Positions 1-63,491 of a stretch of DNA of 64,000 bases are shown here, one piece after another. The DNA comes from Stramenopiles sp. TOSAG23-6. Its lineage: Eukaryota. Positions within the stretch are counted from its first letter, which is position 1; each line of letters opens with the position of its first letter. Position numbers and translations under genes: made by a program. The stretch lies in assembly GCA_900128565.1 (NCBI GenBank), contig LT635912.1, positions 1 to 64,000 of the forward strand. The letters are read 5' to 3'. The notes beneath the pieces were generated by a model that saw only the letters and a list, made by a program, of their open reading frames with translations, searched no databases and was not told the DNA's origin.

Positions 1-95
1 ATATTTCAAAAAAAATCTAAAAAAAATTGTTAGGTACAAAATTTCGTACGAAAAAAAAAACTCGATTTTTTTGTTAAAAAAAAAATAAAACATAC
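1..95 (-). other. Family intron (CobW intron 2), 3' end outside the window
   Basis: Exon ...GTACTT|GTATGTTTT, core TTTCGTACGAAATTTTGTACCTAAC. Confidence 0.85.
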
Positions 96-1249
96 AAGTA
101 CTTTATCTAAAGGCACTTTACAATAATTGCTATAAATCATTCTAGCATCTGGAGCCAATGATTTGATATAACATTCTACAGCTAACAATTTTTTTTCATC
201 AGCAACGAGACTTTTTTTATGCAAGTATGAAAAATATTTTTTTTTTTTTTTTGGTAAAAAAAAATTCGTTAGGTACAACATTTCGTATGAAAATTTTCAA
301 AGACAAAAAATGAAAGTAAAAAAATAATGATACAACGTACATTTAAAATCACTACGTCCGCACACAATAGTTGTGAACGAAACGTTTCAGAGCCAATTTC
401 TTCATGAGACTGATGAGAATTTTTTCTCTGTTCATTTGAAATTGAATTTGTGTTTTTCATACTCACTGTAGGGTTAGGGTTTGAAATTGAATTTGTGTTT
501 TTCATACTCACTGTAGGGTTAGGGTTCGCACCTCCTACAGTTTGAAGGTTTTGAGCGTCACACAAGTCAATATTATTGATTTCTTTTGTTTTCGAAATAA
601 GCTCAGCAGAAACTTGGTCGCAATCGACCACAGTAATTACAGCATCTAATCGAAGTCGCCTTCCCAAACCATTGGCTCCACAGTCTAATGAGGTTGTAAA
701 ATTTTCTAACTCCAAAACTACGTTAACAGGATCAGTGATGCCCGATGTTTCAACAATTAGATAGTCAACTGATGAGAGTGCACTATCACTACTATCACGC
801 AACGCCTGCCATACAACTGATTTTAAATCAGAGCCAAGGGAACAACAAATGCAACCATTTGATAATTCGACAACACCATCTGCGGATTTACGTTTTATTA
901 ACTCATAATCTATATTTAGAGTAGCAAAATCATTTACTAAAGCTCCCACTTTAAAATATATCTCTTCAGCTTCAAGGACACGTTTTAATAAAGTAGTTTT
1001 ACCTGCACCAAGAAAACCAGTAACGACAACTACTGGCAACACATCGTTGCGAAGTTTACCTGACATTCGACGCTCTTCCAACCGTTCCAACATACTTGCT
1101 TGTAATTTCAGATTTGATCCACCATTAGAATTTGTACATCGATGTGATTTTTTATAGCTTTTGTAAAGAGTGACAAATAGCACAGTAATTGCAGTGGTAG
1201 ATGCAAAAATACTGGCAAAGGTGAGCTGTCGAACGAACGACTCAGACAT
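96..1249 (-). CDS. CobW/COG0523 (ZNG1-like) G3E metallochaperone GTPase with N-terminal hydrophobic anchor; exons 1249-341 and 218-96, continues past the window edge
   Basis: Walker A GFLGAGKTT, CxCC motif GCICC, VETSG; splicing joins ADVVILN|KKSLV, matching the family's ADxxxLNKxDL region. Confidence 0.9.
219..340 (-). other. Non-canonical GT-AT intron, 122 nt, phase 0
   Basis: AAT|GTACGT...GTACCTAAC...AATATTTTTCATACTTGCAT|AAA; restores ILN-KKS. Confidence 0.88.
436..526. repeat. 45-bp tandem duplication in coding sequence (NPNPTVSMKNTNSIS x2)
   Basis: Direct repeat seen in DNA and protein. Confidence 0.9.
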
Positions 1250-1252
1250 GGC

Positions 1253-1297
1253 TATAATTTCACAAGTCGATACTTATAATTTCACAAGTCGATACTT
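1253..1297. repeat. 22-bp tandem duplication just upstream of the CobW start codon
   Basis: ATAATTTCACAAGTCGATACTT x2. Confidence 0.9.
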
Positions 1298-7012: not shown

Positions 7013-10000
7013 TTATCCTACTAATGGCCTTGCTTTTGCTTGTGTTGTATAATTCTGAACATTATTTTGACCCATTATTTCTAATCCTCTCACGCTTTGT
7101 TGAACCATGGATAAAATATCTACATCACTCATGGTATCATCACCATTCGCCTCAAGCAGCATAACTATTAATAAAACTTCCAGAAGATTATCTGAAATTT
7201 CATCCGATGATTTATTTTTACCAATCAAATGAAGAATATACATCATTCTCACCTGGTGTTCAGATGGTGGTATGTTCGTATTCCAATGATTATTTGATTT
7301 ATTACTTACAGCGAAGGGAAGGCCTATCATTTTTGCGGCATCGCAATCAACATGAAGAAAACTTATGACATTTGCAACATTGTATCCTCCGTGATAGGGA
7401 TTTCGCGGTATTTTCTTTTTCAGTTTGTTGATGATTTGAAATGCCTTTCGCCTGGATTCACGTAAACGCTTTTGTTTATGAACTATTATTGATTTTTCAT
7501 CATCTTTTTTTTCTTTCAAATAACCATTTAAAGGACTATTAATAGAAACAATATGACCACTAGTCATTGCTGAGTGTAACGTGCTATTTTTGGTCCCTAA
7601 GTCTCGTGTTGATCGCATTTCCTGTCGCACTTGGAGTATCGAAGCCGATAAAGCTGCTGATGATGCTTCTTCAAACTCTCGCCGAAGACTAAGAAGTTCT
7701 GCTGCGTGTTTCGCCTCCAATGTATTGTGAAAAATATTTTTTTTAGCCAAAAAAATAGTTAGGTACAAAATTTGTTACGGAAAAAAAATCGAAATTCAAT
7801 TTTGAAAACATACATGTGGCCCGAGTAGCTGCAATGTGATCCTTATGATATGTTTCAGCACTGAGAAATTGTTCATTCATTTCGTTTCTATGTTGCTCAA
7901 ATTGATCAATTAATGTTTCTTTAAATTTAATCATTTCCTGCTCTTTGCTAATATCATCATTTTCTTTTGTTTCTGCGGAAAACCGTTCGTACTCATTTTG
8001 CTGTTTGACTCGGAGTTTATAAATTTCTTCTTTATGAGCTAATTTACACATTTCCTGTTCCTGCACTGCACATCTACGAACTTCATCTAATTCCCCAGAA
8101 TGAATCTGTCTCAAAGATGATAATTCTTTTTCATGAACAAGTTTTTCTCTATTAATTTGTGCTAGAAGTTTTTTTATATGAGATTCTAGTACTCGTACAG
8201 TTTCTTGAAGATTATTTATATCATATTCATTTTGCTCTTCGATAGTTGTAATTTGTGCTTTAAATGCAGCTTGGATGTCATCCACATTTCGAGAATGACT
8301 TTCACTTTGCTTCTTCATTGCTATTCTATAGTTGTCTAAATTACTTGCTCCTTTATTCATTTCCTTCTCAAGTAATATCTTATACTTGTCAGTTTTACAT
8401 TTCTCTTCCTGAACCAACATTTTCTGATTGTCTAGCTCAATTATATGCCATTTTTTCAGTTGTTCAATCTTAAATGCAGTATCAGCAGCAGGTGAAGAAC
8501 TATTTTGACTTATGATATTGCCCATTTTTGTGTTAATAGAAAGTGGACTTGTGGAATTGTTCACAGTGAATATACTAGTAGAAGTTCCAACGTCAAACGT
8601 GTACGTTTTCTCGGGTGGGAATTGTATGTTGTTGGTGGGATTGTTTCCCATAAATACCTCGATTTTGCTTTGGGAATCATCGGCATCCAAATTTCGACGA
8701 TGGTCAAATTCGTTTATGGCTTTATTGACCGATTCAATTTGGTTATAAAACGCACTTAGCGAAACAGATGCAGTATCTGACATTTTTGTAGGACTGTTTA
8801 TGTGTATGGGAGTATTAATATTGTCCTTGCTGCTGTTGACAGGAGTGGCCATATTGTTGACAGGAATGTCAATGAAGTTCGTTTCTACAGAAGGCTTGGT
8901 ACGAACTCTGTATGCGTACATATTCTGGGATGCATCTAAATTAATTATTACTTTTTGTTCTGCAGCTGTTAATCCTGAACGAGTTAATGTATCCACTGAT
9001 GCATGCTCTAAATCATCGATATTAAAAACACGCATTTCCTTCAAATTAGCGATAACACTAGGTGAGATCCCTCTCACCTTCAAGAGCGCCTCAAGTGAAG
9101 GATGCATTTCATTTTCGATACAGGATAAACCATGCGCACCAAATGCAGAGTTTTCCACAGAAGACCACAAATGATTCATGAATTTATGAATACCTTTATG
9201 CTCTTTATTATCATCATTACCAGTGCAGTCACTGCTTGATGATTCTACAGCTCCTTCCCTTTTTTGTGCGGCGATGTTGTGATGTTTTCTATGGAATAAG
9301 TCAAGTGCGTCATTTTCTACTTCCCTGCCAATTACTGAAACTTTGTTTTCTAATTTTTCTACTTCTCTACCGAAAGCAGATGTTTCTCGTTTTATTTTTC
9401 TGCCGATTATAAACCCTTCTTCTTCTACTTTTTTTACATCACTCTTAATTACAGCTGCTTCTCGTTTTAGTTTTCCACCGATTATGATTGTATCCCTTTC
9501 TATTTTTTTTACAACTCTTTGAACTTCCTTTTCTATGTTTGTTGTATCCTTTTTAATTACTCCTGCTGCTTTTTTTATCTCTCTCTTTATAGCAGCTGCT
9601 TCTCGTTCTATTTTTCTGGTGATTCCTACTGATTCCTTTCCTACTTTTTTTGCATCTCCCTCAATCATAGCTGCTTCTCGTTTTATTTTTCCACCGATTA
9701 CAACTGCTTCTTTTTCTGCCTTTTTCAAATCTTTTTCAATAACAACTGCTTCTCGTTTTATTTTTCCACCGATTACAACTGCTTCTTTTTCTGCCTTTTT
9801 CAAATCTTTTTCAATAACAACTGCTTCTCGTTTTATTTTTCCACCGATTACAACTGCTTCTTTTTCTGCCTTTTTCAAATCTTTTTCAATAACAACTGCT
9901 TCTCGTTTTATTTTTCCACCGATTACAACTGCTTCTTTTTCTGCCTTTTTCAAATCTTTTTCAATAACAACTGCTTCTCGTTTTATTTTTCCACCGATTA

Positions 10001-15246: not shown

Positions 15247-17835
15247 TTACCATTCAGCCCCTGGCCCAAAAAATTCAGCAAGTAGATCTTTATCATGCAG
15301 AATTCTCTGAATAGTTATTTTAGGAACAAATCGGTAAATTCCACGGCGGACATTAGCTCCAGTGTTTATCTGATGTTGAGTCACGGCACTTATAATTGCT
15401 GTGTCTAGGCGAAATTGTTTGCGAGCAAGTTTTGAGTAAAACTTCTTGGCATAAATCAAATTTTCCTTAAGTTTCTTATGCTTTTCTCTATCGAAATGTC
15501 CATTAACGAAATGTATTGTAGTTCCTCTCACATATTGAAGTATATCCTTGTAGGAAGCATCATTTTTCGCTAAACTTAGAATTTCATATATTTCACACGC
15601 TTTTGGGTTCGACTTCCACATTTTCCGAGGTATGTATTTTATAGCTATAGGGTTGTTCAGGATTGCCATAAGCGCCATTTCTTTGTCCATAGAAAATTGT
15701 ATGCTTGTGAATTTCAATGCTTCGCCCTTATTTTTAATTGCTTTTAATTGTACTTCAAAGTCGCCGTTAATTGCCTTCTTTTTTACAAGTTCCCGATTCC
15801 CACGGAGAGATATGTCTGCACATCTCAAGGCAAGGCCATCTCGTTCCACTGCGATCATGACAAGTGTTTTATACACATTAGGTGTAAAATCATTTTTATT
15901 CACCGCACATAGCGCCTTTGGTTTCACCTTTAGAATCTTGGTTACAAATGCAGATGTATTGTGAAAAAATATTTTTTTTTTTTCTGTTAGGTACAAAATT
16001 TAGTACGAAAAAAAAAATTCGAAATTCAAATAAAAATAAAACAAACAGTTCTTTCGGAGTTTTGGATCAGCATAATTAAAAGCTGAAAAAGACTTGGTAA
16101 CAGCAGCCATCACCACCTCTTCATTAGATCGAACAGTTTTATGAAAATCTTTGAGTGAACTCCCATTTCTTTTAACAATTTTTAAAGCCAATTTTGTATC
16201 TTTTTTATAGGCAGGGGGACAAAACTCAATTGCTCCTGCTGCCTTTTTTAATGCCAATGAAATAATCTCATCATCTATTATCCCAGCATAACGTAAGGAT
16301 GAGGCATGGTTTTGAACGGCTTGTTTAACAACTGCTTTATCATTTTGTAGAACAAAGTGGGCGTATCGTAGAACATCGGGGCCGAACTTTACAGCATTAA
16401 TAACAAAAGCTCTATGTATTGTGAAAAAAAAAACTATTTTTTTTAGCGAAAAAAATCGTTAGGTACGGAATTTCGTACGGAAAAAAATGAAATTCAATTT
16501 TGAAAACGTACATCATGTTTAAGACGTGCGGAGGCGTGATTCATTGCCATTCCTTTGGTACGTTTTAAGGCTTCCATCATGTAGTTTGAGAAAATATTTT
16601 TTTAAATTTGATTTGTTTTGTTACAGGTATGACACTTTCTATAAAATAAAAACAAACCACAAAATCCACAAAATCATGAAAAAAAACAAACAAAAAAATA
16701 AAAACAAACCACAAAATCATGAAAAAAAACAAACAAACAAAAAAACGTACATGAAAGTTGAGTTGTCTTTTAATTCGTCAGGTGCAAGTGCAATCACATC
16801 AACATTTTCTGCAAACCATTTTTTCGTGTTTCGTAGAGCATTAAGTACGACATTTGATGATCTCAACTCTTCTGGTACTCTTCGCAAAACATAAATATTT
16901 TCTTTCGTCGAAAGCATAATAATCTCCGTATCACGTTTCAAATGTTCTGAAAGAAAAACATAACTTCTTTTACTTCTCTTGCAAAGGTATTTTCCAACAT
17001 CCTTGTTTTCTTTGAGTCTCCCTAACAGCAACATTTGGGTCTCAAAACTAAATGAGTCAGTATGATACATGTACCAGTCAACTAGTAACACATCAGTATT
17101 TAAGTTGGGGAGCATATTTTCCACACAATTTTTGATGTTTTGTAACACATTAACCTTTCTTTCGCCTTGGAGATTCGCCGGAAAAAAATCGCGACAATGG
17201 TATTTCGCATTACTCCATAGACCAGCTCGAAATAATATTTCTCTGTCACCTCGCAATGACTCAGGCATTGATGTGAAAAAACTGTGAGAACGATTGAACC
17301 ATGTATGACGACTAAAATTCAAAAGAGCAATATTTTCCAAAGCTTCAATGGCAAACTTTCGACGTCGTCGCGCATCAATGGTAAGACGCTCATATAGATA
17401 TGGATTTGTTTGAAGTGTTTTCGTGATCAGAAAGGAAGAAAAATTCAACCATATGGAAGGATTTATTTCCGGGGGGTGGAATATAAATTCTGGATTTGCT
17501 TTAATTCGAGCTGTGAAAGTGTCAATAACGATTTGTTGTACTCTTGGATGATTCTGCATAGCCATGGAGGCGTATTCAAAATGATCAACATTATTACGTA
17601 CCGCATGTAACACCGCATCAAGGGTATTCATTTCTGGGGGTTCTGGGGGAGCGTCGTCGAAAGTTATGCCACCCCAAAAGTCCTCCATTTCTTTGCGTTC
17701 GCGTTCGAGGGCTACACGTGCTCTTTTTTTCGGCGGTTGGAGCGGTTCGGGCGGTTGTTCAGCTGCATGTGCATTTTGTATACTTGAAACAATAAGCAGC
17801 AATAATAAAAGTAATTTGTTGAATGCGCAGTTCAT
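15247..17835 (-). CDS. DUF4116-repeat protein with signal peptide; exons 17835-16751, 16578-16512, 16413-16047, 15953-15247
   Basis: Repeats of AVxxxGxALxYAxxxLxxDxxxV type; three family introns join all four exons in frame. Confidence 0.8.
15954..16046 (-). other. Non-canonical GT-AT intron, 93 nt, phase 1, donor GTTTGT
   Basis: ACT|GTTTGT...GTACCTAAC...CACAATACAT|CT; join KLRKN-SAFV. Confidence 0.85.
16414..16511 (-). other. Non-canonical GT-AT intron, 98 nt, phase 0
   Basis: GAT|GTACGT...CGTACCTAAC...CACAATACAT|AGA; join LKHD-RAFV. Confidence 0.88.
16579..16750 (-). other. Expanded GT-AT intron, 172 nt, phase 2
   Basis: CAT|GTACGT...TTTG-rich expansion...TACCTGTAAC...AATATTTTCTCAAACTACAT|G; join STFM-MEAL. 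Confidence 0.8.
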
Positions 17836-25100: not shown

Positions 25101-25652
25101 AGATTTATTAATTTGTCTTGGAATTTTAGAAAATAGACTTACATTAGTAAATCCAGGTCTCCTTTCTGTGTGCAATGCGATAGATGGTGCTATACAGGCA
25201 AGAGTATGTTCAAGCGCCATATTAATGAATATGTCTGATTCATTCTTACCGGCCATGCATGCTGTATGGACATCCAGAAGAGCAATTGATGTTGTACATA
25301 CATCGGATACAGGTTTTTCATGTACTTCGGAGAGAGAATCCAATACAAGTAGAAACATTCTCGGTGTACAGATTCATATAAAATGGCCACAAAATTATTT
25401 TGAATGCTTACTCCAAGGGAAAGAAGTTTTTACTTATGCATGTAGTATTGGAACTCTGGATCGTCGAGTGCAATTACCTGTAATACGCGAACTAGATGAT
25501 GAAATACTTCAACGTTTGAAAGAAGATCCTGTATGTTTTATTTTTTTTCAATTTCGAATTTTTTTTTCGTACGAAATTGTGTACCTAACAATTTTTTTTA
25601 GATTTTTTTTTAGAAATATTTTTCCAAAATACATGGGTGGGCAGCAGAATAA
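22192..25652 (+). CDS. Large secreted protein with coiled coils and possible non-catalytic thioredoxin-like domains; exons 22192-25530 and 25635-25652
   Basis: Signal peptide; two related segments (SYKFRGRMKFVE, AKYVNRMTFAD); family intron near the 3' end gives KEDP|GWAAE*. Confidence 0.65.
25531..25634 (+). other. Non-canonical GT-AT intron, 104 nt, phase 0
   Basis: CCT|GTATGT...TTTCGTACGAAATTGTGTACCTAAC...AATATTTTTCCAAAATACAT|GGG; boundary set by family homology. Confidence 0.78.
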
Positions 25653-43519: not shown

Positions 43520-46500
43520 ATGGGACGCATTGATTATATTGTATGTGAAAATTTTAAATCCTATGCTGGAATACAGAAAATCGGTCCTTTTAAGGGTTTC
43601 ACCGCCATCATTGGTCCGAATGGCTCGGGTAAGTCAAATCTAATGGATAGTGTTTCGTTTGTCCTGGGAGTATCATCTCAAAAGTTACGTGGTAAAAAGT
43701 TGCGTGATTTGGTATTTCAAAATGAAACTCAAAAACGTGGTCTGAGTGAAAAGAATGGTGCTTATGTTGCACTAACTTACATTGTGTCAGAGGGTGAGTT
43801 ATCAGGAATGGAAGAAGGTGACCGTTTGGAGTTCAAACGTTCTATTTCTCCTGCAGGCAGTAGCAGCTATCATCTTAATGGCCGTAAAGTTGGTTGGAAT
43901 AGATATAATGCGACACTAGAAAATTTAGGATTATTGGTTAAAGCGAGGAATTTCTTAGTTTTCCAAGGGGACGTGGAGTCTGTAGCTATGCGTTCTCCAA
44001 AGGATTTGACCTCACTCTTCGAAAAAATCAGTGGTTCTGAAGAATTCCGTGAAGAATACGATACATTAAGTAAAAGTAAGTCCGCAATAGATAATGAGAC
44101 AGTATTTGCATGTGGTAGGAAGAAAGCTCTTGCGGATGAAAAGAAGAGAGCTAAAGCTGAAAAAGAGGAAGCCTCTCGGTGGAAGTTACAAACTGAAAAG
44201 TTATCCGATACTAAACGTGAGTTTTATTTATATCAACTTTTCCATATTGAAGCTGAGCGCAAAAGCGAACAGAGTACAGTTGATGATATTAAAGAAAAGA
44301 AAAAAGAAATTGAAGCAAAATTAGCTGCGGAGAATGCACAGATCAAATCTGCTAGGGCTGAACGCGCCAAGGCTTCACGAATATTCCAGCAATCTCAAAA
44401 AAAACTTGATAAAGCTCGACAAGCTGTCGATAAAGATCAACCTGCTGTGATTAAGCTACGTACTGAGATAAAACATAGCACAACACGAGCTCAACGTCTT
44501 AAAAATATTGGTATTAAAATTAAAGCTGATCATGATAATCAACTACAAGTGCTAAAAGATATGGAAGTAGATGTCGAAGCTGTACGTTCAATGCAGACCG
44601 AGTTTGAATCTCAAATACACGAAGAAAGTTCACAGCGACCAGAATTACATCTCACAAAAGAACAAGAAGCATTATACTCTGAAACGAAAGAAGCTGCACG
44701 GGCTAAAACGACAAAACTTCGCGTTCGCCTTGAAAAAGTTGAGAGAGATCAACAGCAAGATACTGACAGACTTCAGCGTTTGCAGGGAGAAGATTCGGAA
44801 CAAAGTGATCGTGTTAGATCTCAACGAGAAACTATAGCAACACTAGAAACTCGACGAAAACAAGTTGCGACAGCGATTCAACGAGATGAAGAAAAATGTT
44901 CAGAAGTGACTGAGAATATCAATACAATGAAAAAAAATATTGAGGAAAAGGAAGCGACATTTACAAAAAACTCTGACAATATTAAATCTGTCAGTGAACG
45001 CCTAGGACATGCAAAGGATAGTAAACGGCAAACGTCTAAAGAACAAAAAGATTCGCAATGTTTAGAAAGATTGCAGCGTACATGTATGTTTTATTTTTTT
45101 TTTTAAAACAAAAAATCGATTTTTTTTTCGTACGAAATTTTGTACCTAACAAATTTGAGTTTTTTTTTTAAATATTTTTCCAAAATACATTTAAAGGTGT
45201 CCACGGGCGCCTTGTAGATTTATGTAGACCAACTCAGGAAAAGTATAATGTTGCAATTACTGTAGCCATGGGAAGATTTATGGATGCGATTGTGGTGGAT
45301 ACGGAACAACTAGGTTTCGATTGTATACGATTTATGCGAGAACAGCGTTTGGGTCGAGCGAAATTTTTACCTCTCGACAAATTAAATCCAAAAATGATCA
45401 ATGAACGACTTCGTCAATTAGGTAGTTCTTGTCATTTGGCATTCGATGTCGTTCGATTTGATCCGATTTTTACGTTGGCTATTCAATATGCTTGTAGTAA
45501 TACTGTAGTCTGTGATGATTTAAGTGTTGCACGTCGTTTATGTCACACGGACGGACGAAATTTGAAAGTTGTCACTTTACAAGGTTATATGATTGCAAAA
45601 AATGGAAATATGACTGGAGGATTAACTGCGTCAAATATAGACAGAGCTCGACGTTGGGATGAACGCGAATTTCAGAAAATGAGGAAACAAGTAAAAACCT
45701 TGAAGTCACAACAAGCTGAATTACAACGTGAACTGGGAGGGGGTAGCAAAGTAGCGAGACATCGTGGGCGTATTGGTTCACTCATTGCTGAATTACGTGC
45801 AAGCGAATCCTCTCGTGGAACGTTAGAGAGCAAACTCGAATATGCTAAGAAAGAATTACAATCACAAACAATTCCAAAATTGAAAAAACTTCAAACGCAG
45901 TTACAAGAAGCCGAGAGTATTCTAGGTGAAATGCGACCTAAAAAACAGAAGTTAGAAGCTTCAATTGGAAAACGATCGAAAGTTATTGCTGATTTGAAGA
46001 AAAAAATTGCTTCGACAGAACGTAGTCTTTTTTCACAACTATCTAGTGATATTGGAATTGATATTATGGGAGCAACAGGAAGTGTTGCCGATTACGATGA
46101 ACAAAGGCATGAACGCCAAAGAGAAGTTGCTAAGGGGCGAGCTTCTTTAAAAGACCAATTAACGAAATTGATTGCTCAGCAGGATTACATGGCTAAACGA
46201 GCAGATAAAATTTTGTCTAAAGTAAAGCGATCTGAAAAGCATTACGCTACTGAAGAAAAACAATTAAAGAAATCAAAGAATGCTCTTGAAAAAGCCGAAG
46301 CAAATCTTGCTTTATTGAAAGACACAGTAGAAGGTTTGAAAGAAGAATGTAAGGTATTAGCACAAAAAAAAGAAGAAAAAGAAACGGAAGTCAAATTGTT
46401 TACGAAGGAAAAAACGGCAATATCTAAAACTCGAGATGGTTTTGTAAAAGAAATTGGTTCGCATGAAGCTCGAGTGGAACGTATGCGGGCTCGATTACAC

Positions 46501-47840
46501 ACCGTTCTTCAGAAAGCTCAAATGGAACAGGTTGAACTCCCATTACTTGATTGTGATGATTCAGATGAGGATGATGTAGATGATCCGATGGACACTGACA
46601 GATCTTCTATGTCGCGTTCGCAATCTCAGTCAGATTTTGGAATTTCTGGTTCTGAAAGTCAAGATGGAAGTAGTGTAACATCAGGCTCGGCCACTATGAG
46701 GTTTAGTCAACGAATGAGTACTGGCGTACGACGTAATCGTAATATTGCCGCACAGATTGATTTTTCAGCATTAAAACGAAATCGTGATGTAGAATTATCG
46801 CAGAGTGAACACACGGTAATTCATAAACAATACGTAGCTACCATTAGAGAAATTGTTGGTGATTTAGAGACAATAAAGCCAAATATGCGAGCTTCAGCGG
46901 CATATGACAAAGCTGATGAAGATCTCACGAAACAAACTGCGGAATATTCTACAGTCAGAGAGACACAAAGAACGACTGATAAAAAGTTTGAAGAAATACG
47001 AAAATTTCGCCACGCAGCATTCATGGAAGCATTTGCGCATATATCTACGGTAATTCCTGCTGTGTATAAAGAACTTACAAAAAGTCCTCTCCATCCAACA
47101 GGTGGTTCTGCTTACTTGACATTGCAGAACCAAGAAACGCCATATCTTGGAGGTGTTAAATATTGTGTTCTTCCTCCAGGAAAGAGATTTCGTGATATGG
47201 AACAGTTATCTGGTGGTGAAAAAACAATTGCAGCTTTAGCTTTATTATTCAGTATACATAGTTTCAAACCTGCTCCATTTTATGTAATGGATGAAATCGA
47301 TGCAGCGCTTGACAATGTGAATGTTCAAAAAGTTGCTAACTTTATTCGCCTACGTAGTAAAGGGAGTCCGTTTTCATTTCAATTTCGTATCTAAGTTTTT
47401 GTTTTCGTAGATAATGTTGTACCTAACATTTTTTTTTTGAAATATTTTCTCAAAATACATGTATTCATTTAGGAAATGCGAAGCTTCGTGGAAGTATTAA
47501 TACAGACAGTGACGCTAATATTTTAAGTATGACTCAAAGTCAAAATGAAAATGAAAATGACTTGTTGGTATCAAAACCTGAAAAAGGTCTTCACTTTGAA
47601 GGTACACAGTTTCTTGTGATTTCACTAAAAGATTTGTTTTACAGTAAGGCAGATTCATTAGTTGGTGTATGCCGCGATGAGAAAAAATGCTGTTCGGTAA
47701 CAATGACGTTAGATCTCACTAAATACGAGCGCAGTAAGGAAAATGATGACACGCAAAATAACCAACAAAATATTGTCAATGAGGCTATCCAGGATGATGA
47801 TGGCGAATATTCTCTCATAAACGCCAGTCATAGATATTAA
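43520..47840 (+). CDS. SMC1: Cohesin subunit SMC1; exons 43520-45083, 45191-47365, 47461-47840
   Basis: [27 protein letters not shown], hinge [34 protein letters not shown]. Confidence 0.97.
45084..45190 (+). other. Non-canonical GT-AT intron, 107 nt, phase 1
   Basis: CAT|GTATGT...TTTCGTACGAAATTTTGTACCTAAC...CCAAAATACAT|TT; restores [12 protein letters not shown]. Confidence 0.9.
47366..47460 (+). other. Non-canonical GT-AT intron, 95 nt, phase 1, donor GTCCGT
   Basis: GGA|GTCCGT...GTACCTAAC...CTCAAAATACAT|GT; links in frame to the terminal QFLVISLK exon. Confidence 0.85.
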
Positions 47841-50786: not shown

Positions 50787-53700
50787 TTATCTTTGTTTGT
50801 CTTTTCTTACATTAACTAGCAAAAAATATGCCACTATTCTGAAAAGTAAACCAAATATAATAAGGCAGATTATATCAAAAGCAAAATCAGGCTTCCGATG
50901 CTCCTCAGGGGCATTTTTGTCATATTTACTCATGAGACAACTAGCATCATCGGAATTACCACAGTTGTCCCAGTCCATAAAACAACCATCTTTCTCTCGA
51001 AGTCTTTCAGTATTCTGATTCTGATTATTAAAACTGTCAATACATTTCTGGAGTACTGTAGTTGGAAAATCAGATTCGTGGCCAATACCCATTTCTATCC
51101 AAGTCAGTGCTCTTGCGGACCACCTACTATATGCCCAATATGCGAACTTGCCAGCCTTTGGGACATATCCACCAAAGAGATTAATCAATACTGCAAATAT
51201 GACAGAAGTTAACGTAGCAAGTGACAAATCAGTTTGAAATGCACAGCCAACTGCGTAACCCATTCCAGATACAGTCCATACAACACAGAGAGCCCATTGT
51301 AGATATGAGCTTGTTGGGCCTGCAACATCTACAATGAGTGCTACAGGTGCGATAAAACAAACAGCCCCGATACACTGGAGGGGGAAATCAACCAAAACTA
51401 CTGCCAGAAAATACGCAAGTTTATTTACACCAGCACTTGCTTCACGCCAAAACACAATCTTCTTTTGACCACAGAATGATACACAAGAGACAGATGCTGC
51501 ACAGACACCAAGAGCCATTGTCATGAAAAAACCAAATGGGCCCAATTCATTTCGAAGAGGTTCAAAGCATATTTGTGTAAAAATATTCTTTTTGTACAAT
51601 TTGTTAGGTATGGAATTTCGTACGAAAAAAGAAATCGAAATGGAAGAAAAATAGAAACATACATTTCCATTCAGCACCCGATGGGCAATTTTTCGAATAT
51701 TCATTGGCACCTCCTCTTGGCTCAATTAACAGTGGTTCAGATCCAAAGATGATAGCAATAACAAAACCATCAAATACAAATGCAAGTAAGTCAAATCCCA
51801 ATTGGTATGTGCGAAAAAAACGAATTCTAATATTTTGTACAATAAAGGCTCTCAATTGAACAAAAAAAACAGGAGCTTCTTTCGACGTATCTGACATTGT
51901 TTTGTTGTTTTCTGGTGTAAGTTTTGTATCTGACTTCGTTTCCGTTTTCATTTCCTGAAATGCTTTTGATAATTGGTTAGATGCAAGACGAGATGCATTA
52001 ATCTGGGATTTCACATTTTTTGTAATAGTGCTACTTTTGCTTTGACCACCATCATTTTCAATTCTACCGCATAAAACATCCAACACAAAATCTGCGAAAT
52101 TGTCATCAGAATCTTTTTGGTACCCCATTTTTGCAAAGTGAGCTTCCGCGAGGCTAGCTTGACCTAAATAAACAGTTTTACCACCATATCCAAGTAACAT
52201 CAATGTATCGATTTGATTGTATATTTCAAGCCGAGGTTGATGTAGTACACTCACGACAGTAACTCCACCATTTGCAATGGTTTTCAATGCTTTCATTACC
52301 CCAACTGCTGTACTCGAATCTAAGCCACTCGTTGGTTCATCTAATAAAATAGCTAAAGGATCCATTACCAACTCTAATGCAATATTGACTCTTTTTTTCT
52401 GTCCGCCACTAATTCCTCTTCTGTACTCATCTCCAATGATGACGCCTGCAACGTCTTGAATGCCCAGAACATTCAGTACAGCTTCGACTCTATCTTTAAT
52501 ACTTTTCTCTGATACTTGTCTTGCACTTAAACGCGTTTTGGCAGAATGTGTTATGGCTTCTCGAACTGTGAGTTCTGGATGCATGACATCAGATTGAGGC
52601 ACAAAACCAATACGTGACTTAAAATCTGTTAAACATCCTTCTTTTTCATTGATAAATACTGTACCATCAGTATGCTCCAATTTCCCCGCAATGATATTAA
52701 GAAAAGTAGATTTCCCCGCTCCACTAGCACCAAGAATACACATTAAATTACCAGGTTTAATTTCGCCATTCGTCCCAGATAAGCGAAACTTCTGCGATTG
52801 TTTTTTTTTGATACAACAACCACAATATTTATATTGAGTTGGAATCTTCAATGCGAGGGAATGAAATTTAATAGATATCGAATCCTTTTTCGTTGTAGAG
52901 ATTTTTTCGACTTTACTTTCTTGAGTTTTATTTTCTTGAGTTCCGAGATTTTGCATTTCAACTTGTGGTTGTTGGGAAACTTTACTTTGTCCTTTTCGAA
53001 AAAAACATACCAAAAAAAATTGTCCGCCCACTAAAACAATTACAATAATAAGCAAAAATGGTTCTGAATTTGATTTTGCCCCTTCGGCGCAAATGGATAA
53101 TTTCCCACATTTTTTTGGAGTTTTTGATCCCCTTGGACAATAATAACCTTTAGGACAAATTGTTTTAGTACCTGCATATTTGTCACAATAGTACCCAGAC
53201 GGACATGCCACAGGATATTGATTTTCCTCGCAGTGTAAGCCTGGAGCACATGCAGTCAATGTGACGATACATTGAGATAAATCTCCAGCTTCTTGATAGA
53301 TGTGTCCTGGTTTATGAGACACCCATTTATATGGATCCTTACAAGTATTTTGGGTGGTTGCAGAGGCGTTTCCTTCACAACTACCTAAAAAACTTCGAAA
53401 TTCATGACTGTTCATTGTGGCTTTTGCTTTTGTGTTTTTTTTTTCTAAATCACAGACAGATAATAATTGCTCGCGAAAGAAAAGTATTAGAAATGTGTCC
53501 TTTTCGTGGGCAGAGTTAAAATCAGCACCATCTATTGGCCGTGTGCACACAGCTTTTGGCTTCTGACTCATGGCATGATACAGTTCAAGAAGTAGCGTTC
53601 GTGAAGCAGTGACATCTTTACACATACTGCACTCGTTAGAAAAGTTACTTGAATTATCAGAAACACTCGTATCACCCATTTTTTCAAAGAATATTCTTCC

Positions 53701-54234: not shown

Positions 54235-56109
54235 ATGGTTCATTTCTTGACTACATTGATATATCTTTTGTATTATCACTGCATACATGCAAATGATGAC
54301 CAATGTAATGAAGCTATAAAAAAGCAAAAGATAAACGTGAATAGTTCAGAGTGGAAACTGTCACCAAATCGTGTTGTTATGGACAGTAACTTTAAATGGG
54401 GTCGAGTTGTAGTTCCCATCTGGACGTCAGTATTTTTAGGCACTAATGATTCTCTCCCACACTTGGATAACACTTTACAAATTTTATCCTCATTTGAGAG
54501 TGATGAACTTGCGCTTGTTACAGTCGTAGGTGGTGGCGCTTATCTCCGTATTCTTGAACATATGGAATTTAGTTCTATTCATTTCTTTGACGCAAACGTT
54601 AACGAGTTAAGTAAACTTCGACTTGTTCATGACGATATTATCAAATATGACTATGATACATGGATAGCAAATGGTGGAATGCAGTCTGTAGCTAATAAAA
54701 TTTCCTCACTGCGGGAAAAATTTTACCTGCCAGCCCCACTTCTAACAGCAGGTGTAACCCTGCATCCTGCAACTGACTTTGAGTGGCCGATTCCTGGTCA
54801 GAGTAGTTATTATGATCCATTAGGTCGACGAAATCCACTTTGGTCAATTTTCCCTCCTTTATCTTACCCAGAGTATGCATGGAAACCAACTCGAAAGGGT
54901 TATGAGAGAGTACGCAGACAATTGAAATATCGTGTGGCAAATGAATTTTATTTATCAGTTCCTTGTGGCATCATTCCACCTAATATTCTTTCAATAGTTT
55001 ATGTTGATGGAATCAAAATTCCAAAATCAACAATACGTGCGGTTTCACGTTCGGGTGATGCTATTGGTTTATGGTCGATGGTTGAAGACCAAAAATTACT
55101 CGGTAGGGGAAATAATTCAGATTGGTCAGATTCCCATTTCTTTTGGGAGCTCGCAGTTCGTTGGAGGATTGAAAGTAGCACTACAGTAATAAATAATACT
55201 AGAATCGGTATGGATAATATTGTAAATAATGTAATGCATATTTGGGCAATTGAAGATATAAATATGATGGGAACAATCTACGATTGGATGTTTACAAGTA
55301 GCATGGAAGCATCGTCATTTGCTTCGTCTACTGTGACGACTTCAACACCCAATAAAAAGGAGACAGACAAATCTTTCAATGAAATCATTGTTTTCCATAT
55401 TCTACTTGGTAAAGCAACTACTAAAACGAATTGTTCAAAACGCGAAGAATTATTTATGAATGCGTTGATTCGAGCTGTAAAAGAACCACATGTAAGAAAT
55501 GTTCTAGTTACTGAGCATAACACCTCTTCAAAACAATTTGATATTTTAACTAATCCATGTGCATTAAATGCAGCTAATATCAGAAAACTTATCAACAAAA
55601 CATTGTCATTAACACCAGACAACATCAAAACGAACATAATAGCTACTCGTTTTCTACCTGGTGGTGGTACTCATGATAGAAATGTATTATTTGATATTGC
55701 AGTAAATGAAGGAATTCCATCAAAAAATGGTAATAAAAAAGAAACTTTCCTTGAAGATAATAATAAATCTATGAGACCAGCAACTATTCAACTTCAGATT
55801 GATGAAAACACGAAAAAAAGGCCTATTATTTTTCCATATGATGGGTCTGTAAAAGTATTACAATCTCTCGCGGCTGCTGCGTGCATGGATATTCCTCTTA
55901 CTGATAAATCATGTATGTTTTATTTTTTTTAATTTCGATTTTTTTTTCGTACGCAATTTTGTACCTAACAAAAATATTGAATGTAAAATATTTTTCAAAA
56001 TACATGCATAGACCAAATTATGAATGAAATGAAAAGAATTATAAAAGAAGATAAAAAATCTTCTGCGAGGGCGATTCGCCCTGAAAAAGAGAGCAAGGTG
56101 ATTCAATAA
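54235..56109 (+). CDS. Hypothetical secreted protein; exons 54235-55912 and 56006-56109
   Basis: Signal peptide, long ORF; join DKS-CIDQIM. Confidence 0.7.
55913..56005 (+). other. Non-canonical GT-AT intron, 93 nt, phase 1
   Basis: CAT|GTATGT...GTACCTAAC...AATATTTTTCAAAATACAT|GC. Confidence 0.85.
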
Positions 56110-57192: not shown

Positions 57193-59675
57193 ATGAGATT
57201 GATGAGACTTTTTATATATCATTTTGCATTCGTTCACACTGTTGCAGCAGAAGCATCTTTTGTGTTAAAAAGTTATGAATGCGTCGCTGGCTTCGATTGT
57301 ATGTATCAAAACAGTTGTGCTAATGATGAAGGAGTTTCTTGTCCCATTGGCCGGTTCTGTGGCAGACCCAGTTCTTTCCCCAATGGACTTTTTCAATGTG
57401 ATGGTGACCATAATCAAAGTTGTCCAGGTAGTGAATTCCCAGATGATAGGTGGAGAACTTCAAAGTGTGCCACGGGTGCATACTGCCCGACGACAGTAAC
57501 AAATCAAAAATGTGAAGCTGGATACTTTTGCCCAAGAGGGTCTGTCAAAAGAGTCAAGTGTTCAATAGGTTCAATATGTGGCGAAGCATCACACTTTCCA
57601 ATTGGATTTTTGCTGTTTGGTTTCGCAATACTTTTGTTTATTTTTTATATTTTATGCCGTCGCTTTTGTCTCACGACAAAAATTGGTCATACGATTTCAA
57701 ATGATGGTTGCGAAAACAAAAAAGAACTTCCAGTTTCTAAGAAACTGAAAATGCCATTTCCTCTTCAATTCGAATTTGATAATATATGCTGGAACTTTCG
57801 AGATAAGCCTATTCTTCGTGGTGTATCGGGTTCTGTCAAAGCAGGTGAAATGATTGCAATTATGGGTCCATCAGGAGCAGGTAAAAGTACACTAGTAAAT
57901 TGTCTAATGTCACGGTATACCCCCAGTACCGGAACAGTAACAATAAATGGATACAAAGATATTGAATTCTCTAGTATATGTGGAATAACTGGTTATGTCC
58001 CACAAGATGATATAATGTTGGCTAAATTAACAGTCAGGGAGAATTTAATGCATTCAGCAAATACTCGAATAAATTCTCAAGTAAAAGCAAATTACTCTTC
58101 AAAGGCTCGTGTTGATTCTGTACTCACCAGTCTAGGTCTAGAACATGTACAACATTGTATAGTTGGAGATACCCGTAAGCGTGGACTAAGCGGTGGTGAA
58201 AAAAAACGTGTATCGATTGGTCTTGAACTAGTGGCTAGTCCGTCTGCAATTTTTCTTGATGAGCCTACGACAGGGTTAGACTCATCCGCGGCTGAAGTTG
58301 TGATTAATCAATTAAAACTCTTTGCTAATGAAGGACACGCGGTTATAGTAATTTTACACCAACCACGTGCTAGTATATTCAAACAATTCGATAATATCCT
58401 TTGCTTAACATCTAGAGGCGAAACATTTTACTTTGGAAGTCCTCTTAAAGTTCGTGACTTTTTAAACCAAATACAAAATCCATGTCCATCGGGGAAAAAT
58501 CCAGCAGATCATTTAATTGACATTGCAACGAAAAAGGGTAAAGTATCAATGACATCTACCCCAACAAGTATTTCGGATAAATCTAAAACAATCTCAGAGA
58601 ATACAGTAAAATTTGAAGATCCAAGATTAAACATCAAAGGAAAATTAGCGAGTTGGGGAGCCCAGTTTTTATTCTACTGGAAACGTTCCTGTGTACAACA
58701 GCTACGAGATTCCATGGCACTGTATCTTTATTGTGGTCTTGTTTTCCTCATGGTTGCTTCTCTCTCAACTGGTTTTTCACCTTTTATCCAAGAAAATCTG
58801 GAGAGTGTTTACAAACCACCCCTCGGCAAATCATTGAGAGATTATTGTCCACCACACAATAAAGCATGTTCTGGCAGCATTAACGACGATGGATTAATAC
58901 AAATGATGTTTTTCTACTGTATGTCAATTGGATCAATTGGAATGCTTGCTGCATCTCGAACATTTTACAGAAGTGAAATGATAGTAATGAAAAGAGAATC
59001 AAATATTGGTCTATCCTCATCTGCTTGCATCATTGCAAAAGTTTTTGCTGATTTAAATGTAATTATATTACTATCATTGCTCGCATCAGGACTATGGCTT
59101 GCCATGGGTTATCCGGGTGGACCTGTTCGTTGGTTTGTTCTTACTTTTTCATTGTTGTTTACTTGCTACGGATGGGGATATTTTGTTTCACAAATTGTAT
59201 CCGATGATATGATTATGACAGTATGTATGGTGTACGTTTTCATACTAAATTTTGTACCTAAGATTCTTTTCATCCTAGTGTTTCTCTTTTGCTCACATTT
59301 TCTAAAAATAATTTTACTTTTCGAATGATTCCAGTTGTCATATTCTAATTTTACATTTTTTCTGACGTATAATTTAATTACAGCACTGCTCTTGGCTTAT
59401 CTGCTTTTAATGGTGTGAATCCAAAACTTGTGGATGTTCCTTGGCCGTGGAGAACCATCTGGGGCATGGGATATAGTAGGTGGATTTCCGAAGCCATATT
59501 TTCCACCTTTACAATGCATGATAGAAACAGTGGCTTACCTGTGCAATTTGCTGCATCGAGATTTGGCTATGATGTCTCCGACAATCAATTTATTCTTGAT
59601 ATTGTAGTTGTAGTGATACAAGGAACCTTATTGAGAATATTTACAGGATTTTTGATTGTTAAAAAGAATACATAA
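57193..59675 (+). CDS. ABCG half-transporter with Cys-rich N-terminus; exons 57193-59231 and 59384-59675
   Basis: GPSGAGKST, LSGGEKKR, FLDEPTTGLD, LHQPR; join VCMV-TALG. Confidence 0.92.
59232..59383 (+). other. Canonical GT-AG intron, 152 nt, with a degenerate family-derived 5' half
   Basis: GGT|GTACGTTTTCATACTAAATTTTGTACCTAAG...TTCTGAC...TTACAG|C; restores frame. Confidence 0.85.
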
Positions 59676-59795
59676 AAGATTTAGAAATAAAAACCATCAG
59701 AGATATTTTTTAAATGGCTTAATATTCAGAGCACTTCTTCAGAATGCAGGATTTTATTTGAGTAAAGTTGAACCGTTTATAAATGACCTAATCGT

Positions 59796-61023
59796 TCACG
59801 CATTTGCTGCTATTTTATCTGCTTCACCTACTATTATCGTTGATTCTGTCGATATTGCAAAATCTTCGGCCATATCCAAACTAGAACTTCTTTCTTCTTC
59901 TTTTGCTGCTTGTACTGTTGTTTCTGCTTCTTTCAATTTCAAATTTGCAACTGAAAAAACAAATGTTTCCTCTTCTTTCTTCCTCTGACAACGAAATTTC
60001 CAACGGACCTGATTTACATTTGTTTTATCTGGATCATTAGATGTCACTTCGTATCCTTCAAATGTTGGTATACCTCCTAACCATTTTTGCTTTTTTGTTT
60101 TTGGAAATCCACTTTGAATTACGCTATTTCGTGCAATTTCAGATATATCAGTTGTACTAAGGCACCATATCTGTCGAGCTATGGAATATTCTTCTAGTAG
60201 AGGTGCATCTGATAAATGAAATATCATAGGATCATCCGTGGATAAACTAACATTTAACCCTCGCTTGAAGAATTTATAAAAGGGTTGATCTTCGTATCTC
60301 ATGAATAGAACATTGTTTGATACTGGTGAAACTGCGAGCCCAATATTATCTAGATAGTAAAGATATTGCATAACTATATCATTTGCTAATCCAATTCCGT
60401 GATTAATTCCATTAGCCAATAAATAAGTAGTACAAAGATGATGTTTGGAACCACTTTCACCTGCATGTGGACGCAATGAAAAAGTATTCATTCCTTTAGA
60501 ACGCCTTAATGAATTCAATCGGCTAATATTTGCATAAAGGTAATATAATTGATAAGAATATGGAGGATTTTGTTCCGATGTCCAATCTTTTGGAGTTGTA
60601 ACCTTTCCATCAATTGTTGCAAGAGGGAGATCAAGTAAGCTTTCATCATCGACAGAGTCAAATCCTGAAACATCTTTTAGAAATTCTGAAAGCTCCGGAT
60701 ATTTTTTTGGTTTCTCAGTTGCATCAAAAAGAGGTTGAAATATATTATATATAACTTCTTGATATGATGTTACTTTTTTCAATTTGTGAAATATGCGGTA
60801 AATGTATTGTGAAAAAATATTTTTACTCGAAATATTTTGTTAGGTACAAATTTGGTATAGAAAAAAATTAAATTTAAATTTTGAAAACATATATTCTTGG
60901 AATTTGAATAAGCCATCGATTGTGTGGCTGCTGGACTAGCTTATTATTGAGAGCCCATTTTGCAAGTTTATCCCATGCATCAATGTTATCACCATAAATG
61001 GATAAACGATACTCTGCCCACGT
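59796..61023 (-). CDS. AMP deaminase, C-terminal part only; exons about 61023-60893 and 60801-59796
   Basis: AEYRLSIYG, WLIQIPR, FDSVDDES, LRPHAGESG, SLSTDDP; N-terminal half not present upstream. Confidence 0.88.
60802..60892 (-). other. AT-AT intron of the same family, 91 nt, phase 2
   Basis: AAT|ATATGTTTT...GTACCTAAC...CACAATACAT|T; restores QIPRIYRIF (an equivalent AT-AC register is possible here). Confidence 0.85.
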
Positions 61024-63491
61024 CCATTGATGCAGACATCCGGCGATATTGCTGCAATTGTTTTTCAAATTGATTACTTTGTGTGTGCGTATCATTCAAA
61101 GAGTGTGACATATTTATATCAAAATTATTTTTCATATATTGCGTCATTTCTTGTATTCCGCCAAGAGAACCACTACGCCCACGTCTTACAGGAGGCGATT
61201 TGACAAATTTTGACCCAGATGAAGATGCACGAGCTCGTTCAGGCCAAAGTGAGTGCAAATCAGGGTCTGACGGAGTTCTGCTCATGTTAAAACTATTTCT
61301 TTGCTGACGAACATTTCTACTATTATCTGGTGTTTGCCTCAAATAACCTCTTATTTGTGTAGGTGTTGTTGGTGAACCCAAAAAAGTTGAATTAGGATGT
61401 CGTGGGGGTGTTGACCCCAGAGGGGTTGGCAAATTTGATCCTAGTATCATTATAGGCGATTTTCTTGAGATATTAGTGTTAGGGGACGCATGTCCTATTT
61501 GTTGAAATTGCGGCGGCGTATTTATGGAACTGTTCAAACTTGTTGGCATGCTATTATCTGATGATGTGCTTAGTCTATGTACCCTGTCTGCAGTCATAGG
61601 AATACTATTATCTGATGACAAGCTTAGTCTATGCCTTTCAACGACTTGTCCGACAGTTAACGGTGCATTTGAATGTAATCTTTCTAATGAACTTGCAACA
61701 CTGTATTGAATAGGACTTGATGATGATGCAACCTGCATATTAGGATTCGATCTATTGCTTCCAGGTGATAAAGGGTGACAATTCCGAGGTATAGATAAAG
61801 GTAATGCAACAGACATTGGGGAACCAGCATCATTTTTTACATTGGTATATTGATTATGAGAACCAATACGTGATTGCTGTTGGGGTGACCAATTCTGTGC
61901 ACTTTGAGATGGATAGGTTCTTTGATGTTGAATCATATGAGGCATCATTGGCTGTCGTGGGGAGTAATGTGGACCTTCACTCATTGGAGAAGATATTGAA
62001 GGATGTTCCATCGACCGATCATTCTTATACATGACTTTCATTTGTCCCATATTTTGACGTCGTGCAGAGTGTTCCATACCAGTAGATGAAGACAATGCAC
62101 CTTGAGGTCCAGAATATTGTATATACTGCTGACGAGAATTCGAATAAATATTATTTGGATTGGGTTGAAATTCAGGTTCAACATATTTTTGTGGTTCAAT
62201 AGCAATATTATTCTGTTGGCCTCTTTGCTGTTGATAGTATCTATTCTGTACCATCATAGCAAATCCTGGTCCTAAATGGTCTGGAAGTGAATGTGGTCGG
62301 AAATGATCATGTATTTCGGAAAAATATTATTTTTAGTAAAAATTTGTTAGGTACAAAATTTGGTACAAAAAACAAATTCGAAATTCAATTTTGAAAACGT
62401 ACATTTGGTTGACTTGCTCGGTATAACTCTGGAGGAGATCTATAAGGAGAGTCTAATCGCAAAGGGTAGCGATACATGAGATTATGATTCCCACTATGTA
62501 TTACACTCTTAGTCTGTTGTTGTATATCTTGGGTATAATGAGTATCATGATAGTGTCTTGCTTGGTTTCGTACTCTTGGGATATTTGAACTCTGTTTTTC
62601 TACCTCTTGATTAGGGTTAGGGTTACGTTTCTTTCTCACGTCTTGGCCATCAGAAGCATCTTTCCCTTCCGGTCGATCAGCATAATTATTAATAATACAA
62701 TCAGTGACATTTGGTTGTCCAAGAATTGAACCTGAGAGATCAAATCCACAGTCTTTTGCATACATTACGCTAGCTTTTAATTCACCGAACGGTGTTCCAA
62801 TGGGAGAAAAAAAATATTTAGAAGTTTCCCGATTTGAGTTAAAGCTCAATGGCAGAGAACCATCATTGCTCACTGCATTTGCGCCAAATTCATAATTTAT
62901 ATGTGTTGTTGACAAATTGGACCGTTTCGTATTTCGCATCAGACCATATGCAGGTAGAACTCTAACAAAAGCAAATACCGATCGAAGAAATATTGCAATT
63001 CGCTTATAAACCTGTCTTAGTTGAGAGGTCATATCTCCATACTTTTTTAAACTTAAGTCTGCACCACCAGATGGATCAAAGTGTAAACTCCAACGCTCAA
63101 GTAATATACGTGACGAAGTTGTGTTATCATTGTGATTCTTGGCTTCTACAGAGGGTATTCCGACACCAGAAAAATGACCAGCACAAGCTCCACCCCCGCC
63201 CATCCAAAATATGTCACACTCTTTGAATGGTAAATATGGATCATGCTTCCATGGTTCTAGCTCTTTGCGCACAAAATCTATGTTTTCTATGTGCAAATTA
63301 AATGGCGGCCTCGTCTTCTTCTTTTGAGTCCTTTGAGGAGACTGAAAACGAACACGAGATTGTAACACAATCTCCGATATTTTGAACAAAGATTCAAGTA
63401 CAATACGTTCACACTTTCCTCGCTCATTCTTTTCCAAAGCATTACCTTGTGCAGATTGCCGGCGTTTAATTGCACTAGAAGGTGCAGACAT
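60989..63491 (-). CDS. ATG13: Autophagy protein 13 (HORMA domain plus Ser/Pro-rich disordered region); exons 63491-62403 and 62308-60989; C-terminus possibly truncated
   Basis: IVLQSR, FNL, LLERW, YKRIAIFLRSVFAFVRVLPAY, TPFGEL. Confidence 0.85.
62309..62402 (-). other. Non-canonical GT-AT intron, 94 nt, phase 0
   Basis: AAT|GTACGT...GTACCTAAC...AATATTTTTCCGAAATACAT|GAT; joins the two ATG13 ORFs in frame. Confidence 0.88.

Follow-up and report, generated by a model that had tools for sequence, protein, structure and literature searches.

The window analysed here, the first 64,000 nucleotides (nt) of the forward strand of contig LT635912.1 from Stramenopiles sp. TOSAG23-6 (assembly GCA_900128565.1), contains genes that are interrupted by copies of one short element, which opens with the donor-like sequence GTAYGT, carries a branch box and a T-rich tract, and closes on AT rather than AG. 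With moderate confidence, we read these copies as an introner-like family that is spliced in the form of GU-AU introns. At the level of the predicted coding sequence, removal of the unit at exactly its own length is shown to be needed for both the reading frame and the conserved protein sequence. In this 64-kb window every detectable intron is a member of the family, as an earlier, sequence-only reading of the same DNA had proposed for essentially all of its introns.

Copies of the element and their predicted removal from host genes

A family profile built from 16 seeds (nhmmer) finds 19 copies of one element of about 94 nt in the window, the number that the sequence-only reading had given, and a 25-nt core of the element occurs 13 times at ≤3 mismatches compared with 0 times in 100 shuffles. 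Also in keeping with that reading, 14 genes carry copies and all 19 copies lie on the same strand as their host gene (two-sided binomial about 4e-6). When boundaries are set at the ends of family homology, 17 copies are complete, with lengths of 79-122 nt and a mode of 94 (4 copies); 15 of them run from GT to AT and two from AT to AT, and none has AG at its 3′ end. The earlier count had been 18 complete copies with 17 ending in AT. Its division into 15 GT-AT and two AT-AT copies stands, whereas the complete set is 17, all ending in AT, the eighteenth (59187..59334) being degenerate, with an internal deletion, CCTAAG and no clear ACAT end. The last of the 19 extends past the window start and is preceded by an exon of 41 codons in frame (218-96). 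Pairwise identity among copies averages 0.69 and reaches 0.91 in the closest pairs; the G+C content of the copies is 16-26%, that of the window 34-38%. The copies are collected in the table below and are referred to in the text by their coordinates, at times by one end only.

The first line of evidence for exact removal is a frame test, which asks whether taking out the GT..AT unit joins the longest upstream frame to the longest downstream frame. It is passed by 14 of the 17 complete copies, at a chance rate of 1/3 per copy, and is uninformative for the other three, which lie in a 5′ untranslated region (5′-UTR; 16657-16579), leave 5 codons downstream (25531-25634) or are followed by a frame with its own ATG (18529-18428); the statement that the frame is restored in every case was to this extent overstated.

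Comparison with homologues is the stronger test. In the GTP cyclohydrolase II gene, exon A, upstream of the copy at 38273..38366, ends on residue 222 of 7ej3 and exon B starts on 224, the split codon accounting for 223. At the copy 37982..38078 residue 63 of exon B corresponds to 7ej3 residue 286 and residue 2 of exon C to 290, and counting the unaligned residues 287 and 289 puts the split codon on 288 with no gap. Across the copy 60802..60892 of the AMP deaminase gene, 2a3l residue 411 is followed by 413 with the split codon as 412, while positions 305-347 of the Pfam AMP_deaminase profile are followed by 349-624 with the split codon as 348. The SMC1 junction at 45084-45190 gives FKGVHGRL, which is the F/Y-x-G-V-x-G-R hinge motif of five distant homologues. 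Continuity with homologues is thus residue for residue at four junctions (two in GTP cyclohydrolase II, one each in AMP deaminase and SMC1). The ABCG and cobW junctions were uninformative against solved structures; the Pfam cobW match reaches the last residue of the exon upstream of the copy 219..340.

Copies of the element in the window, with their strand, ends, host genes and what was observed at each
Positions	Strand	Length (nt)	Ends and signals	Host gene or site	Observation
1..95	-		donor GTATGT at 95	cobW-like gene	truncated, 3′ part beyond window start; nhmmer 109-19
219..340	-	122	GT-AT, ends GCAT	cobW-like gene	frame restored, 311 + 62 codons
3108..3198	+	91	GT-AT	GPR180/TMEM145-like gene	459 + 185 codons joined
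7720..7813	-	94	GT-AT	unknown-family gene 7013-11084	1090 + 234 codons joined
15954..16046	-	93	GTTTGT donor	DUF4116 gene	exon ends CT, AT-AC register impossible
16414..16511	-	98	GT-AT	DUF4116 gene	nhmmer, frame restored
16579..16657	-	79		DUF4116 gene, 5′-UTR	short; ends 1 nt before ATG; 5′ boundary uncertain
18428..18529	-	102	ATACGT donor	after calreticulin-like open reading frame	diverged; status uncertain
25531..25634	+	104	GT-AT	1190-codon open reading frame, near 3′ end	exon ends CT; 5 codons follow
33937..34041	+	105	GTATGC...GCAT, branch CCTCAC	gene 32260-35349	559 + 435 codons joined
37982..38078	-	97	GT-AT	GTP cyclohydrolase II gene	exon ends CT; no canonical register
38273..38366	-	94	GT-AT	GTP cyclohydrolase II gene	continuity with 7ej3
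45084..45190	+	107	GT-AT	SMC1 gene, hinge	hinge motif restored
47366..47460	+	95	GTCCGT donor	SMC1 gene	exon ends GA; frame restored; in-frame AG at +12
51569..51662	-	94	GT-AT, ends ATAT	ABCG transporter gene	all registers non-canonical
55913..56005	+	93	GT-AT	gene 54232-56107	560 + 33 codons joined
59187..59334	+			second ABCG gene, 3′ end	degenerate; nhmmer 39.5 bits
60802..60892	-	91	ATATGT donor (AT-AT)	AMP deaminase gene	Pfam and 2a3l continuity
62309..62402	-	94	GT-AT	ATG13-like gene	384 + 439 codons joined

The copies at 16579-16657 and 18428-18529, both on the minus strand, look like leader (5′-UTR) introns right at start codons. Behind the latter, the long open reading frame (ORF) lies outside the restored frame and has its own ATG about 4-5 nt on, and Pfam finds no family for the ORFs behind this copy, which may sit in another gene's leader or between genes. 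One extra nhmmer match, a core-like stretch of 27 nt (ATCCGTACCAAATTTTGTGCCTAAC) at 48185-48211 on the minus strand, falls inside the coding frame of a PhyH-domain gene and is either a chance match or an exonised fragment.

Splice signals and possible registers of the cut

The signals within the element are highly uniform. The donor consensus is RTAYGTTT, typically GTAYGT and in two copies ATAYGT; in all 17 complete copies the donor has T2 and G5, the branch box has ACCT and the last two bases are AT, and G1 is present in 15. The branch box GUACCUAAC, also written GTACCTAAC, is strictly conserved, with CCTAAC in 15 of the 17, CCTCAC in 33937 and CCTGTAAC in 16657. Its A lies 33-50 nt from the 3′ end, which is preceded by a TTTTTYC tract and belongs to a conserved 3′ block, AATATTTTTYCAMAATACAT, that closes on AAUACAU in the RNA. 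Both a GTRNGT-like hexamer and a CURAY branch site with pyrimidine tract, the signs of U2-type introns, are present. Yeast U2 introns have the form GUAUGU ... UACUAAC ... YAG, and the family resembles them in its donor hexamer, in a conserved branch box with a bulged A and in the T-rich tract, but differs in having no 3′ AG; AGs do occur between branch and 3′ end in 7/17 copies and, judged by frame, are not used. The exons flanking the copies end in AT in 11/17 cases and in T in 14/17, and the next exon starts with G in 9/17.

The terminal inverted repeat of the element comprises 4 nt only (GTAT/ATAC), and a search of the element ends for longer ones gave only A/T-rich low-complexity pairs. 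Even this short pairing is not kept, as five copies with C at +4 have an unpaired partner at -6 (A in 3108, 16511, 62402 and 18529, T in 340), and the compensating pairing that marks structure-held intron ends, whether of the euglenid type or the hairpins of Amoebophrya, is not seen here. A perfect palindrome of 12 nt, TTTCGTACGAAA, lies at 45126-45137 and at the corresponding places of the other copies, immediately upstream of the branch box; in the copy 38366 it reads TTTCATATGAAA, with two changes and yet still palindromic, while most other variants are altered on one side only.

The sequence-only reading had described the signals as U2-like without AG. The GUAYGU and CCUAAC motifs and the AT end in 17/17 agree with this, but the terminal pairs GT-AT and AT-AT are documented as subtypes of U12-type introns (PMC1557818). 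A minor, U12-like spliceosome that yields the same messenger RNA (mRNA) is a serious rival, although we judge it unlikely: its small nuclear RNAs (snRNAs) would have co-evolved with RTAYGTTTT instead of RTATCCTTT, leaving the 3′ end free to be AT. There are precedents in Physarum, where minor introns are massively expanded, GT-AT and AT-AT make up 17% and 8% of the non-canonical ones, the U12 snRNA and the branch motif have co-evolved, and the proposed source is a transposon with TA duplication (Physarum preprint), and in Blastocystis, a heterotrophic stramenopile in which minor introns number in the hundreds and the four minor snRNAs are all present (PMC10639083). The donor of the family matches RTAT..TTT at 7/9 positions. 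Positions +5 and +6 are, however, GT and not CC, so that the RTATCCTT motif is absent, and intron-poor eukaryotes use GUAYGU as their standard major-type donor; CCTAAC is one T short of TCCTTAAC and has the form of a U2-type CURAY, and TTCCTTRAC is likewise absent. GT-AT and AT-AT are rare subtypes among U12-type introns with RTATCCTT or RTATCTT donors but the rule here, and the branch distance of the family contrasts with that of U12-type introns, whose branch sites as a rule lie much nearer the 3′ end (10-12 nt in Physarum; preprint).

The position of the cut bonds is a separate matter: with exons that mostly end in AT or T, and with a G that often opens the following exon, more than one register yields the same mRNA. 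All 17 copies allow register 0 (GT-AT), 14/17 allow -1 (TG-CA), 11/17 allow -2 and 10/17 allow +1. The bonds could accordingly be shifted, with most copies spliced as AT-AC or TG-CA and the exceptions dead or using other sites, a possibility to which we assign a low probability; in its AT-AC form the element would consist of GTAT...ATAC together with a single copy of a duplicated AT target site. A(+1) and C(-1) form a pair that works in either spliceosome, a shift of -2 or -1 yields identical mRNA wherever the exon ends in AT or T, and the inverted, AT-flanked GTAT/ATAC termini are as expected of a transposon with a 2-bp duplication. AT-AC intron classes are also documented (PMC1557818). Strict AT-AC, however, is possible in 8/17 copies: it is impossible at 15954, 25531, 37982 and 47366, the four copies at which the sequence-only reading had said it fails, and in strict form it fails also at 340 and 33937 (AT-GC) and at 51662 (AT-AT). 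Two of the failures, 38078 and 16046, concern genes whose frames are intact, and one of these was compared with a solved homologue. In the AT-AC register the last two intron bases would vary (AC, GC, AT) and the first two would be missing in six copies, whereas in register 0 the last two are invariant. A donor cut 1-2 nt before GUAYGU would, moreover, misplace the bases that pair with U6 and U1. We infer that register 0, the GU-AU cut, is to be preferred over a shift of 1-2 nt in the 5′ direction, because the cut then precedes a perfect major-type GUAYGU donor, and because the AT on the intron side never varies and that on the exon side is changed in 6/17 copies, the opposite of what AT-AC splicing predicts.

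On the evidence of frames and homologues, canonical sites fail and ordinary splice sites would not explain the family. Copies 38078 and 51662 have no canonical register; the registers allowed at 38078-37982 are GT-AT, TG-CA, TA-TG or AT-GT only, and the nearest in-frame GT-AG there deletes 7 codons of a segment that aligns gaplessly to 7ej3. A wide search (+/-45 nt) for canonical alternatives gives many matches, as chance predicts; those that preserve length, the only ones of consequence, are sporadic (GT-AG at +4 for 16511 and at +25 for 33937).

Ordinary GT-AG splicing at nearby AGs, with the AT ends a coincidence of the repeat, had been named by the sequence-only reading as an outcome that would refute it. 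The public SMC1 model takes this route, and an in-frame AG lies ≤30 nt behind five copies, but such splicing is very improbable and, as judged from the predicted products, already contradicted at four junctions: the first AG downstream of the element is in frame in 5/15 copies (read by eye), about the chance rate, and residues would be added or deleted at the GTP cyclohydrolase and AMP deaminase junctions, where the AT boundary is exact. The SMC1 model (GSMAST32...1950.1) has introns GT(45084)-AG(45196) and GT(47366)-AG(47586) on the plus strand. In the first, an AG 6 nt beyond the AT is taken and the conserved hinge residues F-K-G are lost; in the second, 221 nt are cut out, including 123 nt behind the AT that form a 41-codon coding segment. 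A codon-usage test, for which the genes of the window served as training set and the AT acceptor at 47460 set the frame, gives the 120 nt behind that acceptor a score of 19.4, against a mean of 14.6 for coding windows and -28 and -62 for the other two frames. The public model of the ubiquitin-activating enzyme E1 has 863 amino acids, where the window frame runs for 1047 codons without interruption (the models concern proteins P0122 and P0001 and apparently belong to this very organism).

Host, transcripts and the proposed mechanism

Long ORFs crowd the window on both strands and encode eukaryotic products: ubiquitin-activating enzyme E1, SMC1, two ABCG transporters, ATG13, bestrophin and an MFS transporter, together with a URC1-type GTP cyclohydrolase II and the C-terminal half of an AMP deaminase. 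Their closest database relatives are stramenopile proteins, with EukProt 'GSMAST32... assembled CDS' entries at the top, and the public GSMAST32 SMC1 entry is locally identical to the window; we therefore take the host to be a marine, MAST-3-like stramenopile. Its genome would be very compact. Rfam and transfer RNA scans of the window gave no match to a non-coding RNA. The AMP deaminase gene (59796-61095, minus strand) covers only positions 305-624 of the 630 in the Pfam profile. Its first exon (60895-61095) opens with a Met that immediately follows a stop, and it overlaps the ATG13-like ORF at that ORF's end (stop at 60989). No N-terminal half was found upstream; the gene is either truncated, a pseudogene or an assembly chimera.

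Sequencing runs containing the window's DNA exist, including poly(A) metatranscriptomes. Contigs of three RNA runs and one DNA run were placed on positions 44001-64000 in tables dominated by cross-matches between copies of the repeat, with a further 158 joints, 393 loose ends and 6573 pieces beyond those listed. Among the joints listed for this segment there is no exon-exon joint or lariat, only repeat-driven cross-joins. In the DNA of an independent seawater metagenome the element is present at 5/5 loci where listed contigs reach the intron, and the copies are therefore not assembly artefacts. One poly(A) RNA contig of 355 nt has a piece on 51347-51567 plus 134 letters more, and position 51567 is the leftmost form of the predicted 51569-51662 junction, given three ambiguous bases. 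This contig is a single observation compatible with removal, its second piece not being among those listed; a protein search for its product gave no candidate.

Contig depth and missing cover are, by the method's own caveat, not evidence, and are noted only as compatible with removal: element-bearing bins of the DNA run have depths of 18920, 1254 and 767 against about 4-10 elsewhere (22.6 in one bin), whereas in two poly(A) RNA runs the element bins are at exon level, except for one bin in run X8 (25.4), and run X6, made without poly(A) selection, resembles DNA. The highest value, in bin 44668-45334 of the seawater metagenome, puts the summed contig depth on the element at about 2000 times that of the flanking single-copy DNA (about 9.5); it is summed over contigs, and relatives may contribute. 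It suggests thousands of element copies, in the host or in its relatives. In run X8, a poly(A) RNA contig at 45185 with another copy of the element continues into CCCTAA-type, telomere-like repeats, and a loose-end consensus at 57154 is absent from the window. A metagenome scan with a 16-nt core motif returned 118 loci; the profile search found no real copy among them and four weak matches of ≤20 bits, which marks these loci as chance matches.

That the copies are not spliced at all, but excised from the DNA of an expressing nucleus, bypassed in translation or lodged in dead genes, would agree with the lack of a junction among the listed joints and with RNA-library contigs that bear element copies, yet it is scarcely credible beside strict sense orientation and intact splice signals (unexpected for DNA elimination), long intact frames on either side in 14 genes (unexpected for pseudogenes), the element's presence in genomic DNA of two independent sources and its stop codons in the exon frame.

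Under GU-AU splicing, each copy would carry its own signals, namely the yeast-type GUAYGU, the T tract, the branch box and the conserved 3′ block, and the pre-mRNA would be cut on the 5′ side of the G in GUAYGU and behind the last AU, giving GU-AU introns and, in two copies, AU...AU. Splicing would most likely be done by the major, U2-type spliceosome, with its rule for the 3′ splice site relaxed or altered; AU would be chosen for its position, closing the conserved 3′ block, and not by AG. The exon-terminal (A)U and the following G may be the trace of an insertion site, either an AT target-site duplication or a preferred target, and the element presumably is or was mobile. For a DNA transposon the 4-nt inverted terminus and the AT flank are the only points, and the strict sense orientation would be just as well explained by insertion through reverse splicing. 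All five comparable loci are common to the second DNA source, with no insertion polymorphism among them.

The further proposal that AU is the ordinary 3′ splice site, that one introner burst made GU-AU introns dominant and that the spliceosome is altered in 3′-end docking while canonical 5′ and branch recognition are kept has, in our estimate, an even chance; it draws on the thousands of copies estimated from depth. The sequence-only reading had gone as far as taking AT for the normal 3′ site of the spliceosome or of a variant of it. Removal of the unit does restore frames and protein, which points to splicing as the probable route, but the cleaved bond directly after AT is a predicted one, and dominance of the family genome-wide would be an extrapolation from 64 kb.

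Several observations weigh against GU-AU splicing. The claim that GT/AT-AT is the only register common to all copies holds in that register 0 is open in 17/17, but TG-CA, the -1 register, is excluded by 47366, 18529 and 16657 alone, the three weakest copies, and therefore the window alone does not prove register 0: the first has a GTCCGT donor and the AG at +12 listed in the table, and the other two are without an informative frame. The T at exon position -1 in 14/17 copies would fit equally well if it belonged to the intron. Both copies with an AT donor are doubtful, 18529 being ambiguous and the AMP deaminase gene being without its N-terminal half. To our knowledge, G(+1) with U(-1) is no efficient pair in the major spliceosome. 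The listed RNA joints gave neither an exon-exon joint nor a lariat, and the Rfam scan, whose scope was the 64 kb, gave no snRNA. Finally, the sources document GT-AT and AT-AT for U12-type and not for U2-type introns (PMC1557818; Physarum preprint).

Relation to known introns and implications

Introners, as described in Micromonas, Aureococcus and others, are like this family in being short, AT-rich and homologous copies in many genes whose ends coincide with intron ends, in carrying their own splice signals, and in having short direct repeats that overlap the exon/intron borders (PMC9860276; PMC12130899). Two of their signs, many homologous copies per genome and homology boundaries that are intron boundaries, were found here. 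The differences are that the introners described have GT/GC/GA...AG or AT...AC ends, where the family has a 3′ AT in 17/17 (PMC12130899), and that the family has no convincing terminal inverted repeat beyond GTAT/ATAC and no insertion polymorphism at 5/5 loci. The same introner survey dropped families with unfamiliar sites unless RNA data backed them (PMC12130899).

Intron families that resemble transposons are well known, and genomes dominated by introns other than GT/AG have precedents. In Fritillaria borealis, a larvacean tunicate, most introns, like those of the window, escape GT/AG, the non-canonical ends being those of non-autonomous DNA transposons removed by a U2-type spliceosome (10.1101/2025.08.15.670264); there, however, the host is an animal, the classes are many and diverse and the 5′ end is also non-canonical, whereas here one class is seen and only the 3′ dinucleotide is changed. 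In Amoebophrya more than 60% of introns are non-canonical and fall into repeated families with direct repeats of 3-5 nt over their borders, but these share no terminal dinucleotides and form inverted-repeat hairpins of 8-20 nt (PMC7789003), in contrast to the uniform GT-AT ends and unsupported end pairing of the present family. The claim that such a dominant class is undescribed needs qualification by these two systems and by the U12-type GT-AT and AT-AT subtypes. In the literature on MAST-3, stramenopile or protist introns and introners, with supplements outside the scope, no description of a GU-AU intron family was found, and the available part of the Tara single-cell paper mentions introns only in its gene-prediction methods (PMC5778133). 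The family differs from these systems in being one uniform class, found in a stramenopile, whose 5′ and branch signals are canonical and in which only the 3′ dinucleotide is changed.

The terminal AG is among the most constant features of spliceosomal introns; in solved spliceosomes it is recognised by the contacts that it makes with the branch A and the 5′ G. For the annotation of this organism, the consequence is that gene finders restricted to GT-AG mis-model its genes, as in the SMC1 model that loses the hinge motif and a 41-codon segment, and such mis-modelling may contribute to the low gene counts of MAST-3 single-cell assemblies (PMC5778133, from which we infer the link). The family would also place a heterotrophic stramenopile among the lineages known for transposon-like intron gain. 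If GU-AU splicing is true, a free-living protist that has U in place of the terminal G, together with a textbook donor and branch site, would be a clean natural experiment on the choice of the 3′ splice site, and one easier to interpret than those of Fritillaria and Amoebophrya, whose introns vary at both ends.

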